DNA of 64,000 nt from Actinomycetes bacterium (GCA_021841005.1 JAKBVZ010000035.1:143557-207556), one strand, 5' to 3'. Counted from the stretch's first letter, positions 1,556 through 63,874 are shown. Program-made: numbers and translations. Notes: generated from the letters alone by a model not told the origin.

Positions 1556-2744
1556 GGGCATGAAGGTGCTGGATCTCTCCCAGGGCGCAGCAGGCCCGAT
1601 TGCCGGGATGATTCTCGGTGAGTACGGCGCTGAAGTGATCAAGGTGGAACCTCCTGGCGGCGAGTGGGGGCGCAAGCTTGGTCCTCCATTCATCCAAGAT
1701 CAAGCTGCTTCGTACCTGGGAATGAACCGGGACAAGCGCTCTATCGTGATTGACCTCAAGCATGAAGAGGGTGGAGATGTTCTTCGTAGGCTGGCCTCGG
1801 TCTGTGATGTGGTGCTGGAGAGCTTCAGGCCGGGCGTCCTGGATAGGCTGGGTCTATCCTATGAGGCTCTCAGGGCTGAGCGCCCGGATGTCATCTGGTG
1901 TTCCATTACCGCTTTCGGCCAGGATGGTCCGTGGCGTGACAAGCCTGGGGTGGATGGGATCATCCAGGCGGTCTCGGGAATCATGAGTGTCACCGGTGAA
2001 CCAGATGGGGCACCGGTCAAGGTGGGGGTGCCTGCCGCCGATACAGTCGGTGCTTTGGTGGCGGTTCAGGGCATCTTGCTTGCCCTGCTCACTCGCAATT
2101 CCACGGGACGCGGGCAACGGGTGGATGTATCGCTGCTGGATTCTATGCTGATGTTCCAGACGGTGCCTTGGTCGATGTTCCAAGCGAGTGGTCGCTCTCC
2201 TGGCCGGCAAGGAAGTGCTGCGCCGTATGCCGCTCCGAACGAAGCCTTTCCCACCTCGGATGGCTATATCATGGTGGCTGCTTACTGGCCTGACCGTTGG
2301 AGAACGTTCACCGAGGTGCTCGGACGTCCCGAGCTTGCCCAAGATCCGCGTTTTGTGGATGTGGCTGCCAGGGTGGCCAACCGGTCTGCGATGTTCGAGG
2401 AACTCTCCAGCGCATTCAAGACGGCCTCTACGGACGAGTGGGTGGCCAGGTTGGAGGATGCAGATGTGGTCTGCGCGAAGATCTATGACTATGCCGCCCT
2501 GGCATCGGTGGAGCACCTTGTCGATGGGGAGCGTTTTCCTGCCCTGTACCATCCCATCCTGGGTAAGGTGCCGGGGGTGGGGATGCCTGCCAGACTCTCC
2601 TCCACACCTGCGGTTGCGCGCACTGCGGCTCCGCTGCCCGGTGAGCACAGCGTGGAGATCCTGACCGAGGTGGCCAATGTAGCAGATGAGCTGGTAGACC
2701 ACTGGCTCGAGGAAGGGGTGGTCGAGCAATGGCAAAAGGAGTGA
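1521..2744 (+). CDS. Family III CoA-transferase (CaiB/BaiF/BbsF-like)
   Basis: MKVLDLSQGAAGPIAGMILGEYGAEVIKVEPPGG N-terminal signature and family-typical length. ATG 1521 is chosen over the ORF-track start 1437. ATG 1560 is an alternative. Confidence 0.85.
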   Translation: MKEVEGVRSALEGMKVLDLSQGAAGPIAGMILGEYGAEVIKVEPPGGEWGRKLGPPFIQDQAASYLGMNRDKRSIVIDLKHEEGGDVLRRLASVCDVVLESFRPGVLDRLGLSYEALRAERPDVIWCSITAFGQDGPWRDKPGVDGIIQAVSGIMSVTGEPDGAPVKVGVPAADTVGALVAVQGILLALLTRNSTGRGQRVDVSLLDSMLMFQTVPWSMFQASGRSPGRQGSAAPYAAPNEAFPTSDGYIMVAAYWPDRWRTFTEVLGRPELAQDPRFVDVAARVANRSAMFEELSSAFKTASTDEWVARLEDADVVCAKIYDYAALASVEHLVDGERFPALYHPILGKVPGVGMPARLSSTPAVARTAAPLPGEHSVEILTEVANVADELVDHWLEEGVVEQWQKE

Positions 2745-7324: not shown

Positions 7325-8664
7325 TATTTGAACCTGGGTTAGAGGCGATGGACCGCGAAGCCTTGGACGAGCTTCAGTCGGCACGGTTACGGGAGATGGT
7401 GGCAAGGGTTTACCAGCGTGTCCCACCCATGAGGGAGCGTTTGGAGGAGGCATCCATCCGGCCAAGTGACATCCAGGGTATATCTGACCTTCATAAGCTG
7501 CCGTTCACCAGGAAGACCGATCTGCGGGACAACTATCCTTTCGGGTTGTTCGCTGTGGACACAAAGGAGCTGGCGAGGATACACGCCTCATCGGGAACCA
7601 CCGGTAAACCGACGGTCGTGGGCTATACGCGCGCTGACCTCGATCTATTTGCCACGGTGTGTGCCCGAGCGCTTGCCGCTTCCGGTGCCGAGCCAGGCAT
7701 GATTCTCCACAATGCCTATGGCTACGGACTCTTCACCGGCGGTTTAGGCTTCCATGCAGGTGGAGAGCATCTGGGTATGGTCGTCGTGCCGGCATCTGCC
7801 GGTATGACCGAACGGCAAGTCATGCTGATGAGGGACTTCCATGCACAGGTGCTTGCCTGTACGCCCAGCTATGCACTCACCATAGCCGCAGAGTTTGCTC
7901 GCCAAGGGATGTCTCCAGAGGAGGTGCCTCTCGACTATGCGGTCTTAGGGGCCGAGCCTTGGACAGAAACCATGCGCGCTGAGATAGACAGTTCGTTGGG
8001 AGTAAAAAGCGTCAATGTCTACGGCCTGTCCGAGATCATCGGCCCTGGGGTGTCCTACGAGTGCGTGGAGGCGCGGTCCGGTTCTCACCTCAACGAGGAT
8101 CATTTCCTAGCGGAGGTCGTCGATCGTGATAGCGGGGAGCAGCTGCCCATCGGGGAAGAAGGCGTGCTGGTGATTACTACCCTCACCAAAGAGGCATTGC
8201 CCTTGATCCGTTACTGGACCGGGGACATCACCAGCCTGGACAGATCTCGATGCAGTTGCGGCCGCAGTTCAGCCAGGATGTCCATGGTGAAGGGCAGGAC
8301 GGACGACATGCTGATCGTGAGGGGAATCAATGTATACCCGAGCCAGGTCGAGGCTGCTTTTGGCGGTGTGGACGAACTCACGCCGTACTACCGGTTGCTG
8401 GTGGATCGCACGGGTATATTGGATGAGTTGGAAGTAGAAGTGGAGCTTTCCGAGGATGCGTTTCGCAGGGTGGCTGCTGAGTTCCTTTCCGACGAGATAG
8501 TGGAGGCCGATCATCTGTTGCGCAGGGTACGGGACATGACCCAACGGGCGATCAGAGAAAACGTCGGAGTGTCCGCCAAGGTGACCCTGCTGGAGCCTGG
8601 CAGGCTACCCCGTTCGGAGGGCGGTAAAGCTCAGCGGGTCGTGGACAGACGCCGGCTATCGTGA
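7321..8664 (+). CDS. Phenylacetate-CoA ligase-like adenylating enzyme (PaaK/F390 synthetase family)
   Basis: LPFTRKTDLRDNYPFGLFA and SSGTTGKPTVVGYTRADL motifs, about 447 aa. Confidence 0.85.
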   Translation: MIFEPGLEAMDREALDELQSARLREMVARVYQRVPPMRERLEEASIRPSDIQGISDLHKLPFTRKTDLRDNYPFGLFAVDTKELARIHASSGTTGKPTVVGYTRADLDLFATVCARALAASGAEPGMILHNAYGYGLFTGGLGFHAGGEHLGMVVVPASAGMTERQVMLMRDFHAQVLACTPSYALTIAAEFARQGMSPEEVPLDYAVLGAEPWTETMRAEIDSSLGVKSVNVYGLSEIIGPGVSYECVEARSGSHLNEDHFLAEVVDRDSGEQLPIGEEGVLVITTLTKEALPLIRYWTGDITSLDRSRCSCGRSSARMSMVKGRTDDMLIVRGINVYPSQVEAAFGGVDELTPYYRLLVDRTGILDELEVEVELSEDAFRRVAAEFLSDEIVEADHLLRRVRDMTQRAIRENVGVSAKVTLLEPGRLPRSEGGKAQRVVDRRRLS

Positions 8665-10383: not shown

Positions 10384-11234
10384 GTGCTTTTACCGAGTAC
10401 CTCATAACCGGTGTTGCCAGAGGATTGGTCTTTGCGTTGCTGGCCACCGGATTCGTGCTGATTTACCGGGTCACCCGGGTGGTCAACTTTGCCCAGGGCG
10501 CCTTTGCCGTGTTCGGAGGCTTGCTTACCTTCTCATTGTTGCGTGCGGGCATACCCCAGGGGGTCTCGGAGGTACTGGCCGCCTTGGCTGTGGCTGTTAT
10601 CGGCCTTATTTTTGGGGTCATCACCATTGCCGGGAAGATCCCTCTGCTTTCTTCGCTCATTATAACCATAGGGCTCGCCATGTTGAGCGAGGCTATCGCC
10701 ATGCTCGCATGGGGCTCAATCCCGATCAGCTACTCGGGACTGGCCGGTCATGACTTTGTAATTCTGGGAGCGGTTGTTCAACGCCAGTATCTATTGGTGC
10801 TCGTAGTCTCCTTGGTACTGTTTGGGTCCATGGCGCTGCTCTTCGGTCGAACTTATTTTGGTAAGGCGATGACCGCATGTGCCTCGAATGCCTATGCCGC
10901 CAAGCTGTCAGGCATCAACGTGAAGCGCATGGGGTTGCTGGCTTTCATACTTGGCGGCGCTCTGGGGGGTATTGGCGGGGCACTGCTCACCCCCGTGGAG
11001 CCTATGACTTACAATGCAGATGTATCCTTGTCCATACTCGGTTTTGCGGCGGCAATCGTAGGAGGACTCACCAGTCCTGGATTGGCCGTAGCCGGCGGGC
11101 TGGTATTCGGTCTTACCGAGCAGTTCGTATCTGGATACTGGTCTCCTTCCTACGACACCGCTGTAGCACTGGCGCTACTGATCGTAGTTCTGTTGTGGCA
11201 GGCACGGCGCATGCGCCTGGAGGGTCTGGAATGA
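10380..11234 (+). CDS. livH: Branched-chain amino acid type ABC transporter permease (LivH-like)
   Basis: Polytopic hydrophobic protein starting YLITGVARGLVFALLATGFVLIYRVTRVVNFAQG (LivH N-terminal pattern). ATGA overlaps with both neighbours. Confidence 0.85.
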   Translation: MSAFTEYLITGVARGLVFALLATGFVLIYRVTRVVNFAQGAFAVFGGLLTFSLLRAGIPQGVSEVLAALAVAVIGLIFGVITIAGKIPLLSSLIITIGLAMLSEAIAMLAWGSIPISYSGLAGHDFVILGAVVQRQYLLVLVVSLVLFGSMALLFGRTYFGKAMTACASNAYAAKLSGINVKRMGLLAFILGGALGGIGGALLTPVEPMTYNADVSLSILGFAAAIVGGLTSPGLAVAGGLVFGLTEQFVSGYWSPSYDTAVALALLIVVLLWQARRMRLEGLE

Positions 11235-58240: not shown

Positions 58241-60109
58241 CTACTGCTGCGACGGCAGGGTAAGCCAATTGTTTACAAGGGTCCTGCTGAGGCTTCCCAC
58301 ATGAATGGCTGATACCTTGCCGGAAGAGACGAGTACTGCTGTCGGTAGGGCGATGATACCGTAGCGCACCGCCGTCCTCCCGCCTATGTCCATGGCAAGC
58401 GGGTAGGTGATGCCGTATTTCTTGGCAAATACCCTTACTGCACCGGCGGGATTACCCTCGTCTATGCCGGATATTTGCAACTGCTTGCCGTGGAAACGCG
58501 AAGTGGATTCAAGCAGAGGTACCTCTTCGAGGCAGGCTGTGCATGTTGTGGAGAAGAAATCGATCAGGACACGTTTTCCGTTGAAGGCTGAGCTGTCTAC
58601 TCTCTTTCCACCCGTCGCGGAAGGGAGAGCAAACGCCGGTGCCGATCTTCCTATATGTATACCAGCGGTCTCCTGCTCAAGTAGTTTCTCGGGCAGTTTA
58701 GCTGATCCACCGGAAATGTTTGCGATCTTGCCCACCGTTCCAGCTGATGCCGGCAGCTGGCCAGCTGTCGTGGAATTACCGGCAAATGGGGAAGCGCTCT
58801 GGCTGCTAAGGGCCGTAACAGCTATAGGGACTACGATGGCCAAGGCTACCAGGCCTACCAGCCATGGCCTGGCCTGGCCATCCTCTCTGCTGCCGATCGT
58901 GACTACAGGTGTAGTGGCGGTTGGATCGGTGGTCGGATTGGATGTGGACGCTGCGGTGATGGACGTATCTTTTCTGTGGTCTCCCGCAGTGCCGACCCTC
59001 GTGTTCGCTGATCTGATTACCGTACCGTCCTGCCTTTTCCATACCGCAAGACCGGCAGTTGCAGCAACGCCCGCGAGGAGCAGCGCTACCAGACCTATTT
59101 GGGATGAATGCTCGGATATCCAAGTTGCCAGTATCGATTGCCAGCTTTCCACGAGACGCACAGGTGCATTTGCCCGTGTAGGAGATACCAGGTAGCCTAC
59201 CCAGTAGTCCACCAGGTAAGCTCCAGCTGCCACCAGAAGGGCTGCCGCAACTTTCTCCACGTATCTCGATGCTTTCCTCAGCACGTTGACAAACGATGTA
59301 CCTGCCAGTGCGACGCTAATGCTCAGGGCTACAAGCAACGCTGCCATGCCTGCGAGATAGGCGAGCATCCCGCTTGCCACCCCGAATACGCTGCGGTTCT
59401 GATGGAACGGTATTACTCCGGCTATGAATATTGGTAGGGAGCAGGTCAGTGACGACAACGCATAGTATATGCCGAACAGCACTATGGACATCCATGAAAT
59501 CCTGGAATCCTGGATGCGTCTCCAGGTGAATACCGGCACGCCAATCGGTAAGGTCCTTCCTGCAAGGGTAAACGCACCATAGATCACCAGTAGGATGGCA
59601 ACCGGTATCATCGCCCATGGGACAAACTCCATAAACGCGCTAAAGCCTGATTCAAGCAGCACCCCTAGTACGGCGAATACGGCAAGGAATCCTACGGATA
59701 CCAGCACGCCTGCGAGTAGAGCGTCCATTACCGTTCCAGCGGTATTGACATTGCGGGAATGACGCAGGTTATCCAGACCGCTCTGGTGGCCCAGACCGTG
59801 AGGTCTGTCCGGGTTGTGGGAGTTATCTGGGTTATCTGGGTTATCTGGGTTATCTGGGTTATCTGGGTTATCTGGGTTATCTGGGTTATCTGGGTTATCT
59901 GGGTTATCTGGGTTATCTGGGTTGTACTGGTTGTGGGGTCTGTCCGGGTTGTCGAAGTTGTCCGAGCGTGGTCCGGACAGATGGTCGTGACGAGACGACC
60001 GGGACGAAACGAGGATGGACAGGTATGCGGGCAGCAGGGGGAAGCCGCAAGGGTTCACGGTGGTGGCCATTCCCAAGGCGAATGCGTACGCAAGGAGGCT
60101 ATAGCTCAT
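58241..60109 (-). CDS. DipZ-like fusion: CcdA/DsbD-type thiol-disulfide transporter plus C-terminal TlpA/ResA thioredoxin-like domain
   Basis: N-terminal NPCGFPLLPAYL and LTCSLP Cys motifs of CcdA. C-terminal FFSTTCTACLEEVPLL has a CxxC thioredoxin fold. A (NPD)n repeat is inserted after TM1. Confidence 0.8.
   Translation of the reverse strand: MSYSLLAYAFALGMATTVNPCGFPLLPAYLSILVSSRSSRHDHLSGPRSDNFDNPDRPHNQYNPDNPDNPDNPDNPDNPDNPDNPDNPDNPDNPDNSHNPDRPHGLGHQSGLDNLRHSRNVNTAGTVMDALLAGVLVSVGFLAVFAVLGVLLESGFSAFMEFVPWAMIPVAILLVIYGAFTLAGRTLPIGVPVFTWRRIQDSRISWMSIVLFGIYYALSSLTCSLPIFIAGVIPFHQNRSVFGVASGMLAYLAGMAALLVALSISVALAGTSFVNVLRKASRYVEKVAAALLVAAGAYLVDYWVGYLVSPTRANAPVRLVESWQSILATWISEHSSQIGLVALLLAGVAATAGLAVWKRQDGTVIRSANTRVGTAGDHRKDTSITAASTSNPTTDPTATTPVVTIGSREDGQARPWLVGLVALAIVVPIAVTALSSQSASPFAGNSTTAGQLPASAGTVGKIANISGGSAKLPEKLLEQETAGIHIGRSAPAFALPSATGGKRVDSSAFNGKRVLIDFFSTTCTACLEEVPLLESTSRFHGKQLQISGIDEGNPAGAVRVFAKKYGITYPLAMDIGGRTAVRYGIIALPTAVLVSSGKVSAIHVGSLSRTLVNNWLTLPSQQ
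59801..59963. repeat. 9-nt tandem array: 10 perfect GGGTTATCT units (59829-59918) flanked by degenerate units
   Basis: Read directly from the sequence. It is in frame within the DipZ-like CDS and encodes NPD repeats. The plus strand carries G3 runs every 9 nt. Confidence 0.95.
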
Positions 60110-60246: not shown

Positions 60247-60308
60247 CTGTATCGTTCCACTTGTATCGTTCCACTTGTATCGTTCCACTTGTATCGTTCC
60301 ACTTGTAT
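60247..60308. repeat. 14-nt tandem repeat TGTATCGTTCCACT x4 plus a partial fifth unit, intergenic
   Basis: Read directly from the sequence. It lies 138-199 nt upstream of the DipZ-like ATG (minus strand). Confidence 0.95.
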
Positions 60309-60383: not shown

Positions 60384-60689
60384 CCATGATGCAATATACC
60401 GGGTCCTTTTGGTAGCAATGCCGGCACTTATGCGGCCTGCGAGCGCGGTAGGTTGACAATGATGGGCATTATAGGCTTTGAGAACCTCGACAATGCAGAC
60501 TCTGAGCATGAGGGCCTGCAGGTTGCGCCGTGAAGCATTGCTTGATACAATACTGAGTCACTGGTGTGCCGAGGCTGGTGGTCTTGGTCCATTGGACTCA
60601 GCATCCAAGTGAATGCTGAAAATATTGTATGTGTGATGAGGTGCCTCATGGGCTCTCGACCCGTGGTAAGTGATGACGAGTGTTGCTTG

Positions 60690-60855
60690 AATCGCAAGCC
60701 AAGGTTTAGAAGTCTTGGGGAGAATCGGGAAGCCGGTGTAAATCCGGCACGGACCCGCCACTGTGATCGGGGAGTCCTCACCGTTGTGCCACTGGGATAA
60801 TCCTGGGAAGGCAGGTGAGTGATGGTGATCCGGAGTCAGGAGACCGGCCTCATCT
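60690..60855 (+). promoter_or_regulatory. Cobalamin (B12) riboswitch
   Basis: GGGAAGCCGGTGTAAATCCGGCACGGACCCGCCACTGT (60727-60764), GCCACTGGGATAATCCTGGGAAGGC (60788-60812) and AGTCAGGAGACCGGCC (60834-60849) match the conserved core, B12 box and 3' segment of the cobalamin element. The 5' boundary is approximate. Confidence 0.8.
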
Positions 60856-60901
60856 TGGTCAGTGGTCGTGGCAACGACCACCGGAAAGCGGAGGTCTTTT
60901 C

Positions 60902-62746
60902 GTGGAACTTGACGGCACGAGCACTATTCAGGGTGGTGATTCCGCGGAGGTTGGCAGTCCAGCGGTCCGCTCTGCAGGTGATGTTTCGAAGGTCGATCGG
61001 ATGGATGGCGCACGGCCAGATGGCAGTCCACAATATGGCAGTCACCTGGATGGCGCAGCCGGTAATCCAGTCAATGCGTCCACTGGGAGTCCACCCATCG
61101 CCGACTTGCCTACGGCGAGCCTGGATGTTACCAACCGTCCCTGGCGCATCGAGCAGAATGGTATCAGGACCGTACCGGACAGTGCTCGTTCCGGTACGGT
61201 GTGGGATCTGTTCTGGGTATGGTTTGCAGCCAATATAGGCATATTGGGGGTTGTCCTGGGTGCCATAGTCCTGGCATTCGGTTTGAACCTGTGGCAGTCG
61301 ATTCTGGTGATTGCCAGCGGCACGCTGCTGTCGTTTGCCCTGGTGGGTGCGTTTTCCGTAGCAGGTTGGCATGGTAGGGCTCCCATGATGACACTGTCGC
61401 GAGCCGTCTTCGGCATTTACGGTAATATTTTTCCCAATGTGGTTAGCTGGGTGTCTCTTGTGGGATGGGAGACCATAGCGGTCATCACTGGAACGCTGGC
61501 GATGATGGCATTGTTTGGCATGTACTTTCATCTGGGAACGATTTTACTTGGTGCTGCGTCGCTACTCGTGGTGGCGGGTCTTTCAGTGGCGTTCAGCATC
61601 CTTGGCCAGGCCACCTTGGTGGTGGTCCAGAAGTGGGGAAGCTACCTGCTGGGCCTGATGACGCTGGCCGTGCTTGCGGAGATTCTCACGAAGACATCGT
61701 TTCATGCACTGGCTGCACAGCACGCCGGTTCCTGGTTGGATGGTGTACTGCCTGCGTTCTCGATAGTAGTTGCGGGTACGGGCCTTAGCTGGGCCAATGC
61801 GGCGGGAGACTACAGCAGGTATACATCCACCACCACATCCAGGCGGAGTGTATTTTGGGCGCCGGTGGCCGGCGGCTCCATACCTCTAGTAATCCTGATG
61901 ATCACCGGGGTGCTGCTGGGTGCGAAAGATCCTCACATTGCTACTGCCGCAAATCCCATTGCAGCCATACAGCATGTCCTGCCTTCCTGGATGGCGGTCC
62001 CGTACCTGATTACCGCTGCAGGCGGGCTTATCGTGGAAGCTGATCTCAGCCTTTACTCTTCAGGACTCAATCTACTGAATCTGTTCATACCTTTGAAGCG
62101 TTACAAGAGCGTGCTGATCGACTCCGTATTCATGCTGGGCGGAACCGTCTATGTGGTGTTTATATCGAGCAGCTTCTTCCAGCCGTTCGAGTCCTTTATC
62201 TTACTGCTCGGTGCTGGACTGGCATCTTGGGCAGGTGTATTCCTGGCGGGACAGCTCCGCTACAGGGCGGTAGTTGCTGCCATGCCTGACGTGCCGAGTG
62301 CGTCAACCGACTGGGGCCGACCACAGGCAGGGCACCCAAGGCTGCGTCAGGTGGCCCTTGCTGGTACGTCCAGTATGTCAACCACCGTCGCTGCTGCCGC
62401 ATCCGCCATACCTACTATGCAGGGCCAGTCCCGACCGCAGTCACCAGTGCAGCCTTCCGCATCCGCCATACCTACCACACCCGCTGTGAACGTACTCTAT
62501 GATGGACACGCTACGAGCGTGCTCGTACATAAAGGGGTGGGATGGGCCGCTGTCCTAGGCTGGCTGGCTGGTACCTCAATAGGATTGCTGTTCACCACTT
62601 CGCCTTTCTTCGATGGGCCGTTGGCCAAGGGTATCTTTGCTCAGTCCAGTCTCGAGATCCTCGTAGCCTTTCTTGTGGCCGCACTGGTCTTTCTTGTCGT
62701 TGCACGAGTTGTGCGAGCTGCGGAGATTCACGATTGGCTGGCGTGA
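60902..62746 (+). CDS. NCS1-family (purine/cytosine/uracil/thiamine/allantoin type) permease
   Basis: GTVWDLFWVWFAANIGILG...MMTLSRAVFGIYGN...VSWVSLVGWETIAV pattern of NCS1/CodB-like transporters. GTG 60902 was chosen (GGAGG at 60890-94) because the ORF-track start 60815 lies inside the riboswitch aptamer. Confidence 0.8.
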   Translation: MELDGTSTIQGGDSAEVGSPAVRSAGDVSKVDRMDGARPDGSPQYGSHLDGAAGNPVNASTGSPPIADLPTASLDVTNRPWRIEQNGIRTVPDSARSGTVWDLFWVWFAANIGILGVVLGAIVLAFGLNLWQSILVIASGTLLSFALVGAFSVAGWHGRAPMMTLSRAVFGIYGNIFPNVVSWVSLVGWETIAVITGTLAMMALFGMYFHLGTILLGAASLLVVAGLSVAFSILGQATLVVVQKWGSYLLGLMTLAVLAEILTKTSFHALAAQHAGSWLDGVLPAFSIVVAGTGLSWANAAGDYSRYTSTTTSRRSVFWAPVAGGSIPLVILMITGVLLGAKDPHIATAANPIAAIQHVLPSWMAVPYLITAAGGLIVEADLSLYSSGLNLLNLFIPLKRYKSVLIDSVFMLGGTVYVVFISSSFFQPFESFILLLGAGLASWAGVFLAGQLRYRAVVAAMPDVPSASTDWGRPQAGHPRLRQVALAGTSSMSTTVAAAASAIPTMQGQSRPQSPVQPSASAIPTTPAVNVLYDGHATSVLVHKGVGWAAVLGWLAGTSIGLLFTTSPFFDGPLAKGIFAQSSLEILVAFLVAALVFLVVARVVRAAEIHDWLA

Positions 62747-62758
62747 GCTAGTGAGCTA

Positions 62759-63874
62759 GTGAGCCATATGACTATTCCAGCAGGGACGCGACTTTCTATC
62801 GGTCCGCAAATGACCTTCAAGCCACGGGGCCGGTTGGTACTGATAGGCAGTATCGTAATGGACATGTTGTTGTACGTGGATCGCCTTCCTGAGCGGGGGT
62901 CAGATGTGATGGCGAATATGTCGCAGGTCTCTCCCGGAGGCGGCTTCAATATTCTTAGCTCAGCTAGGAAGCTGGGGATGGAGGCTGCTTACGGGGGGCT
63001 CGTGGGAAGCGGTCCCAACGGGGCAGCCATAGAGGGAGCGCTGGACGGACATGGCATAGAGCGGCTGTTGCCTAGGAGGGCTGGCAGCGATAACGGGTTT
63101 GTCGTAGGGGCCGTAGAGCCAAGTGGGGAGCGGACATTCGTTACGGTGCCAGGATGCGAATCCATGATCGAGCCCGCCCATCTACTGGCTGTACAAGAGT
63201 TGCTCAAGCCAGATGATATAGTATATATCTCGGGATACGAGTTCTTATATCATGTTTCAGGCCCTGCGATCGCGAGTTGGATTGCTGGAGTTGGAGAGAC
63301 GTGGCCCGTTGCCATAGATCCGGGTCCGCTTGTGGGCGAACTACCTGGCCGCACTTTTTTCGATGCGATGCGTGCATGCAAGCTGCTCACACTCAATGAG
63401 CGGGAGGCAAAGATATTGCTGCAAAGATCATCATCGGCTCATTGCCAGTCATCGTTGCCTGGGCATGCGGAGTCGGGCGGGGAGGCTAGTGCACTGGATG
63501 TTCTTGGCAGCCAGATCAGTCCCAGCCGGATCAGCTCGCTTGCAGCTATTGCAGAGGCCATTCATGGCGAGTATTTGAACCGTGATGCGATAGTCATCGT
63601 ACGGGCCGGAAGTCTTGGTTGCGTGATATGCGAGAAGGGGGACGCCAGCGTATACGTGCCTGGCAGATTTGCCAGCGAGGTTGTGGACACTACAGGTGCC
63701 GGCGATGTGCATACGGCAGCGTTTCTGTCCACGTATTACAGTGGAGAGTATGCGGTCGATGCCGCCTGGGTTGCCAATGTCGCTGCTTCGATGTCGGTGT
63801 CCGTACGGGGTGGGGCATCATTTCCGAGCGTTGCCGATCTTGCGAGGGCATTACAAGGCATAAAGAGTGAGTAG
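62759..63874 (+). CDS. PfkB/ribokinase-family carbohydrate or nucleoside kinase
   Basis: PGGGFN di-Gly motif near the N-terminus and C-terminal VVDTTGAGDVHTAAF (DTxGAGD) motif. Start is GTG 62759 or ATG 62768. Confidence 0.8.
   Translation: MSHMTIPAGTRLSIGPQMTFKPRGRLVLIGSIVMDMLLYVDRLPERGSDVMANMSQVSPGGGFNILSSARKLGMEAAYGGLVGSGPNGAAIEGALDGHGIERLLPRRAGSDNGFVVGAVEPSGERTFVTVPGCESMIEPAHLLAVQELLKPDDIVYISGYEFLYHVSGPAIASWIAGVGETWPVAIDPGPLVGELPGRTFFDAMRACKLLTLNEREAKILLQRSSSAHCQSSLPGHAESGGEASALDVLGSQISPSRISSLAAIAEAIHGEYLNRDAIVIVRAGSLGCVICEKGDASVYVPGRFASEVVDTTGAGDVHTAAFLSTYYSGEYAVDAAWVANVAASMSVSVRGGASFPSVADLARALQGIKSE

Follow-up and report, generated by a model that had tools for sequence, protein, structure and literature searches.

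What is controlled by a cobalamin riboswitch that stands before an NCS1-family permease and a PfkB-family kinase? This question is raised by a locus near the 3′ end of a 64,000-nt stretch of DNA from an Actinomycetes bacterium (GCA_021841005.1, JAKBVZ010000035.1:143557-207556), which was analysed as a whole and is called the window here; coordinates are counted from its first nucleotide. For usable cobamides, many bacteria need lower ligands or alpha-ribazole from other producers, and to our knowledge CblT/CblS is the only dedicated route for lower-ligand uptake and activation described so far. Our reading, which we hold at about even probability, is that the locus is a two-gene operon under translational cobalamin-riboswitch control whose most likely role would be the scavenging of a cobamide lower ligand. 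The riboswitch itself is of an ordinary, known type; what is new is probably the non-orthologous lower-ligand salvage module behind it.

A first-pass annotation of the sequence held that an NCS1 permease with such a kinase is not a characterised member of the B12 regulon, which fits the literature. Our searches found no paper linking NCS1 or PfkB genes with cobalamin riboswitches, and a 2013 RegPrecise-based catalogue of riboswitch regulons contains 26 "B12 and precursor transporters", none of the NCS1/PfkB kind. The cytosine permease in a C. difficile review stands under a T-box and not a B12 element, and a paper on the ribokinase STM3547 is unrelated to B12.

A cobalamin riboswitch before a two-gene operon

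The operon consists of two genes only, encoding the permease (60902-62746, + strand) and the kinase (62768-63874, + strand). As judged from its match to the family model, the element in the leader is a full-length cobalamin riboswitch: the aptamer (60685-60866, + strand) is assigned to RF00174 by cmscan with 105.3 bits (E 2.5e-25) against a gathering score of 31.5, and the match spans the full model, positions 1-189 of 189. RF00174 was the sole family at gathering score in an Rfam scan of the whole 64-kb window, in which no thiamine pyrophosphate (TPP) riboswitch was matched. The cobalamin aptamer named in the first-pass annotation, which had proposed the TPP family as the competing match to be checked, is thus borne out. 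The motifs that it quoted, GGGAAGCCGGTGTAAATCCGG...CCCGCCACTGT, TGCCACTGGGATAATCCTGGGAAGGC and AGTCAGGAGACCGGCC, are present in the leader as written, and its positions for the downstream hairpin, the GGAGG and the GTG given below are correct. The B12 box TGCCACTG (~60787-60794, + strand) lies within the aptamer.

The aptamer is on the permease strand, ends 36 nt before GTG 60902 and is followed by an expression platform. In four public assemblies of this organism, gene callers place the permease start at this GTG, which gives a protein of 614 aa. A mechanically derived open reading frame (ORF) does begin at 60815, inside the aptamer, as the annotation had pointed out, and an automated call from there would bury the riboswitch in a false N-terminus. 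We rejected this start, as the gene callers take GTG 60902, which stands behind an invariant Shine-Dalgarno sequence.

Conservation of the leader was assessed in an alignment of six sequences, comprising the window and five loci (L005-L009) whose permeases are 72-86% identical to that of the window. All six share a highly conserved aptamer, which scores 100-109 bits in L005-L009. The aptamer is followed by a P13-like expression-platform hairpin, GTGGTCGT-GGCA-ACGACCAC (60862-60881, + strand), with 8 bp and a predicted folding energy of -14 kcal/mol. All 48 of its 48 alignment cells are paired, four of the eight pairs show compensatory changes, and the GGCA loop is invariant. Next comes the invariant segment CGGAAAGCGGAGGTCTTTTCGTG (60882-60904, + strand), which contains both the Shine-Dalgarno sequence GGAGG (60890-60894) and the start codon GTG. 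Its 23 nt are identical in the six leaders except for a TA insertion, and CGGAAAGCGGAGG(TA)TCTTTTCGTG is unchanged across them. Folding predicts a second hairpin, CGGAAAG/CTTTTCG, within this segment, where there is no variation by which the pairing could be tested. No intrinsic terminator was found in the leader. With a covarying P13, an invariant Shine-Dalgarno and GTG and no intrinsic terminator, the leader fits translational control via a P13-type hairpin.

The switch is assumed, by analogy, to be of the OFF type, because the characterised cobalamin riboswitches are almost all OFF switches (PMC11477304). Two points count against this part of our reading: the direction of regulation (ON or OFF) is not readable from sequence or folding, and the Shine-Dalgarno lies outside P13, where alternative pairings could even free it once P13 forms. 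In the folding, GACCACCG, which is the 3′ strand of P13, also has a possible partner in CGGAGGTC (-10.6 kcal/mol), and P13 formation could release the ribosome-binding site from this pairing. The switch might then be an activating one, with cobamides inducing the pair so that the products of cobamide breakdown, such as alpha-ribosides from degraded cobamides, are processed or recycled. The ADP-ribosylglycohydrolase (ARH) partners found in relatives of the pair could plausibly cleave alpha-glycosidic ribosyl bonds, and an activating corrinoid riboswitch has been reported (PMC10327014). However, the predicted pairing has no covariation support and its 3′ arm is invariant, activation would depart from nearly all characterised members of the class, and the co-operonic arrangement in other genomes, where btuF (an uptake gene) and cobT are the partners, argues for expression at low B12. 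We therefore regard an activating switch as very improbable. The same GACCACCG/CGGAGGTC pairing, as a weak hairpin followed by TTTT, was also considered as a terminator and was rejected for want of covariation support.

Recurrence beside cobamide genes

A scan with the permease alignment, restricted to one genome per species, gave 80 loci in 80 genomes, with permease homologues 86-37% identical. Riboswitches at these loci were detected by a strict motif scan, two Rfam runs and an nhmmer profile. All three methods agree on 15 loci, and these 15 of the 80 have a cobalamin riboswitch before the permease, either immediately or with a single intervening gene. This is far above chance, because cobalamin riboswitches number fewer than three per genome in a published survey (535 in 197 genomes). 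The question posed in the first-pass annotation, whether orthologous permease-kinase pairs in other genomes also carry B12 elements, is thereby answered in the affirmative.

The arrangements fall into several types. The order riboswitch, permease, kinase is found in six actinobacterial species, namely the window organism, represented by four separately fetched assemblies (L001-L004), and five others; it also occurs in L086, an assembly from a separate look-up, and in the Bacillota locus L025. In L020 (Bacillota), which has cbiP upstream, and in L038 (Ktedonobacteraceae, Chloroflexota), btuF is placed between the riboswitch and the permease-kinase pair. Further, three Bacillota loci (L026, L032 and L035) have the order riboswitch, cobT, permease, with intergenic gaps of 0-39 nt and a CobT scoring 469 bits on PF02277. 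Three actinobacterial loci (L068, L075 and L080) have a riboswitch and the permease alone; of these, L068 adjoins cobS, cobU, btuD, btuC and btuF, and L080 has, close by, a gene for a corrin methylase as well as another riboswitch accompanied by cbiM...cbiO. In L036, a cobalamin riboswitch (7572-7718, 48.7 bits) lies directly after the kinase gene and before a btuC-like gene. Two weak extra cobalamin-riboswitch signals of 32 bits were also seen in L080, at 1703-1845 (- strand) and 1989-2029 (+ strand), between the corrin methylase gene and cbiM.

The key locus, and the most telling for the link to B12, is L090, an extended version of the L038 contig. It encodes, co-directionally, a CobC-like His_Phos_1 protein, CobS, CobU, an RF00174 riboswitch, a BtuF-like protein, the NCS1 permease and the PfkB kinase, and no CobT was found within 10 kb. 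Locally, this is a complete set for nucleotide-loop assembly minus the enzyme that makes alpha-ribazole phosphate. The uptake and phosphorylation of a riboside precursor, which the first-pass annotation had put forward as the role of the pair, gains support from these gene neighbourhoods, in which the permease family stands behind B12 switches together with cobT or btuF and near cobS, cobU, cobC and cbiP.

The same neighbourhoods bear on a B12-independent bypass, in which low B12 would trigger the import and phosphorylation of a (deoxy)nucleoside or of a modified nucleoside such as queuosine, offsetting a stalled class II ribonucleotide reductase or QueG in the manner of metE/nrdAB. Control by cobalamin riboswitches is known for isozymes that substitute for B12-dependent enzymes, the salvage of nucleosides would require just such a permease and ribose-type kinase, and co-transcription with btuF is compatible with expression at low B12. 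However, linkage to cobT, cobS, cobU, cobC and cbiP points to cobamide assembly, and the riboswitch-controlled versions include no queuine-releasing hydrolase. In ribokinase and adenosine kinase, the PfkB aspartate binds both the 2′- and the 3′-hydroxyls; the kinase studied here keeps this residue and would be a poor fit for deoxyribonucleosides. A bypass based on queuosine, a deoxynucleoside or methylthioribose is accordingly ranked low, and we consider the explanation quite unlikely.

Neighbour-joining trees of the permeases and of the kinases, which are simple distance trees, are congruent. Riboswitch-controlled pairs occupy four or more distinct branches (the window clade, L025, L020 and L038), and the cobT-linked and switch-only permeases form two further clades. 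Such separation in both trees implies repeated recruitment, and the association with B12 elements thus arose repeatedly in three phyla. The thiG-linked permeases, which presumably carry thiamine precursors, form a distinct clade.

The closest known parallel to lower-ligand scavenging by such a pair is cblT-cblS of Listeria innocua, Geobacillus kaustophilus and Symbiobacterium thermophilum, where a cobalamin riboswitch likewise precedes a transporter-kinase pair. The proposed role, supply of alpha-ribazole phosphate without CobT, is also shared. In addition, the Geobacillus operon btuFC-...-cobDUSC-...-cblTS resembles L090 in having cobU, cobS and cobC and lacking cobT. The protein families differ, being NCS1 (PF02133) and PfkB (PF00294) in the system described here. 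These two were the only Pfam matches of the pair, and no CblS-type NCBIfam model was matched at E <0.01. CblS has its relatives among hydroxyethylthiazole kinases of the ThiM type, and CblT is a small membrane protein of the vitamin-transporter type. The taxa differ as well: Actinomycetota, acidophilic Bacillota and Ktedonobacteria here, and mostly Firmicutes for CblS. CblT is reported to carry 5,6-dimethylbenzimidazole and CblS to prefer ribazole over adenine, so there is a precedent for pairing a base-type transporter with a kinase for ribosides. The window system is probably an analogue of cblT-cblS, non-orthologous and built from unrelated families.

The two proteins and their candidate substrate

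The kinase is a PfkB-family, YegV-like protein of 368 aa, read from ATG 62768, the start that gene callers take. An alternative start, GTG 62759, is 12 nt past the permease stop (62744-62746), and with the ORF opening there the annotated distance of a ribokinase/PfkB-type kinase behind the permease holds. Family membership is clear from a PF00294 match of 121 bits, from the motifs GGGFN and DTTGAGD, which are invariant in the family, and from the ribokinase fold. The kinase is full-length alignable to E. coli YegV (28% identity, E 3e-29) and groups in the tree with YegV, not with the ribokinase RbsK. It scores below every NCBIfam equivalog cut-off, including that of the ribokinase model TIGR02152 (84.7 against 299.65). 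In an AlphaFold model with a predicted local distance difference test score (pLDDT) of 85.7, the protein has the ribokinase fold, and the best Foldseek matches are ribokinases with TM-scores of 0.7-0.85 (0.71-0.85 to RbsK, 1RKD). Structure prediction and the Foldseek search returned this generic fold only, with no closer solved relative. A lineage-specific insertion at aa 229-249 is modelled with pLDDT <50 and is similar to an insertion in the permease.

In an alignment with E. coli RbsK, whose numbering is used here, the kinase family keeps D16, G41-G42, N46 and the catalytic D255, the aspartate of GAGD. In contrast, N14 is replaced by a hydrophobic residue (V), K43 is deleted and E143 is not conserved, so that these ribose contacts are lost and equivalence to RbsK fails on residues as well as on score. 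The human counterparts of K43 and E143 are listed among the essential contacts to ribose (PMC12621476). As K43 and E143 are lost while the machinery acting on the 5′-hydroxyl is kept, the residue pattern appears to fit a riboside kinase and not a kinase of free ribose. A further difference from RbsK is that the window kinase has no adjoining ribose transporter.

The permease, of 614 aa, matches PF02133 with 148 bits over residues 90-458, its membrane core, which places it in the NCS1 family. The annotation of GTG 60902 as the start of an NCS1-family permease is thus upheld by the family match as well as by the gene callers. At its N-terminus the protein is extended by a variable stretch of ~77 aa, and at ~aa 455-545 it contains a low-complexity insertion of ~90 aa that is absent from more distant homologues. 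An exact 19-nt direct repeat (62397-62415 and 62457-62475) was noticed inside this insertion. Among NCBIfam models, the permease is below the cut-offs of CytX (TIGR02358, 80.9 against 309.85) and of the general NCS1 model TIGR00800 (88.4 against 353.1), and no CodB match was obtained.

The cytX-thiD salvage system is similar in that an NCS1 permease stands behind a vitamin-sensing riboswitch together with a kinase of the ribokinase superfamily. The riboswitch there is of the TPP type, whereas it is of the cobalamin type here, and the thiG-linked permeases are, as noted above, a separate clade. The reading of the window pair as a TPP-controlled system for hydroxymethylpyrimidine (HMP) was rejected on the missing TPP match, the low CytX score and the assignment of the kinase to PF00294 and not to the HMP-kinase family PF08543.

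The sequences show the riboswitch, the structure of the operon, its conservation and its recurrent linkage to cobamide genes; for the substrate, for the direction in which the switch acts and for the reaction of the kinase, we infer the following scheme. At low cobalamin, the leader would leave the ribosome-binding site and the GTG accessible, and bound cobalamin would lock P13, probably via a loop-loop contact, and occlude initiation. The permease would import a lower-ligand base of the benzimidazole or purine type, or its alpha-riboside. The YegV-like kinase would then phosphorylate the 5′-hydroxyl of the riboside, whether taken up as such or made within the cell, yielding alpha-ribazole 5′-phosphate by a route bypassing CobT, and CobS would join this product to activated cobinamide. 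The permeases of the cobT-linked and switch-only branches fit uptake of the base itself, which CobT would then activate. The substrate could be alpha-ribazole, a free base or another riboside.

Several observations weigh against lower-ligand scavenging as the role of the window pair. A tblastn search over the 64-kb window found no cob or btu genes. As there is no kinase in the cobT-linked and switch-only branches, these say more about the permease than about the kinase. In the genome collection, only nine of 41 permease-kinase pairs have a riboswitch and 32 do not. Many riboswitch-free pairs have an ARH gene just upstream, often with a GntR/UTRA regulator nearby, and the versions in Microbacteriaceae and Bifidobacteriaceae add a gene of the isochorismatase family. 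Further, B12-linked and ARH-linked members interleave in both trees, which means either that the family shares a class of substrates or that its specificity shifts easily. The native substrate of the family may therefore be some other riboside.

These riboswitch-free relatives point to E. coli yegTUV and its repressor YegW (GgaR). The window kinase is homologous to YegV, and the relatives share an ARH protein, 36% identical to YegU, and a GntR/UTRA regulator; judged by gene content, the riboswitch-free loci are NCS1 versions of the yegTUV/yegW module. The window operon differs in having neither an ARH nor a GntR gene, in its NCS1 transporter, where E. coli has a nucleoside:H+ symporter of the major facilitator superfamily, and in its control by a B12 riboswitch instead of a protein repressor. 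For E. coli yegTUV, a link to ADP-glucose has been proposed.

The pair may be a generic module of the yegTUV type that imports and 5′-phosphorylates another riboside, such as nicotinamide or nicotinate riboside or another N-riboside. Its link to B12 would then be indirect, for example through the supply of nicotinate mononucleotide (NaMN), the ribosyl-phosphate donor of CobT. The YegV-like kinase, the YegU-like partners, the predominance of ARH/GntR modules and the interleaved trees all agree with this explanation, as does the added isochorismatase-family gene. The isochorismatase family includes nicotinamidases. What it leaves unexplained is a permease family that is co-operonic with cobT and with btuF and joined to a cobC-cobS-cobU cluster without cobT. 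In addition, ARH genes are consistently missing from the riboswitch-controlled versions, with neither ARH nor GntR genes found in the window or in any riboswitch-controlled locus, and NaMN, as a central intermediate of nicotinamide adenine dinucleotide metabolism, should need no B12-specific supply. We consider this explanation unlikely, and lower-ligand scavenging remains our preferred reading.

A broader proposal, possible yet doubtful, is that this NCS1 subfamily and the YegV-like PfkB kinases form a widespread, unrecognised lower-ligand system replacing CobT in Actinomycetota, Bacillota and Chloroflexota. By extension, yegTUV-type operons would process alpha-N-ribosides such as alpha-ribazole, with the kinase making the 5′-phosphate and the ARH-like enzyme cleaving the alpha-glycosidic bond. 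If lower-ligand scavenging holds, a second, unrelated transporter-kinase system would exist in soil and acid-mine members of these phyla, and predictions of which community members remodel or complete cobamides would shift. It would also provide a candidate benzimidazole transporter and a concrete substrate hypothesis for the large YegV/YegU family.

ARH-type relatives and surroundings of the operon

The module of NCS1 permease, ARH, YegV-like kinase and GntR/UTRA regulator is widespread among the collected loci (L010-L019, L037-L044, L087, L088 and L095). A metagenome scan with the kinase alignment returned mostly generic PfkB proteins and ~9 YegV-like loci, all with ARH and none with a riboswitch. 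One metagenomic locus, L094 (1249-6936), encodes cbiB, cbiP, OsmC, a glyoxalase, ARH and a YegV-like kinase in this order. It is the only ARH-type module near cobamide genes, with the ARH-kinase pair ~1 kb downstream of cbiB-cbiP and no riboswitch detected, and the proximity may be a coincidence. In L087, from Glaciihabitans, a ZMP/ZTP riboswitch (10948-11033, 50.4 bits) precedes a gene pair for serine hydroxymethyltransferase and a FolD-like protein, which is expected and unrelated to the present finding.

In the window, the large ORFs that were scanned are housekeeping genes: infB, nusA, secDF, pnp, dapB and a gene for a proteasomal ATPase. Just past the 3′ end of the window, on the other strand (L001, 11455-15313), are genes for a phage-type integrase, a Toprim/AAA_25 primase-like protein and an HTH_17 protein. 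They start ~350 nt after the kinase stop and suggest an integrated element; no tRNA gene was found at the junction.

Two tandem repeats lie upstream of the operon. The 14-nt sequence TGTATCGTTCCACT is perfectly repeated in 4.4 copies at 60248-60308, in an intergenic region ~380 nt upstream of the riboswitch. The 9-nt sequence GTTATCTGG is perfectly repeated 11 times at 59806-59964, inside an ORF on the - strand (58241-60109), where it codes for PDN repeats in a membrane and thioredoxin-like protein of 622 aa. Among the assemblies of the same organism this ORF is 622, 616, 598 and 495 aa long, and the repeat number is either unstable or collapsed in assembly.

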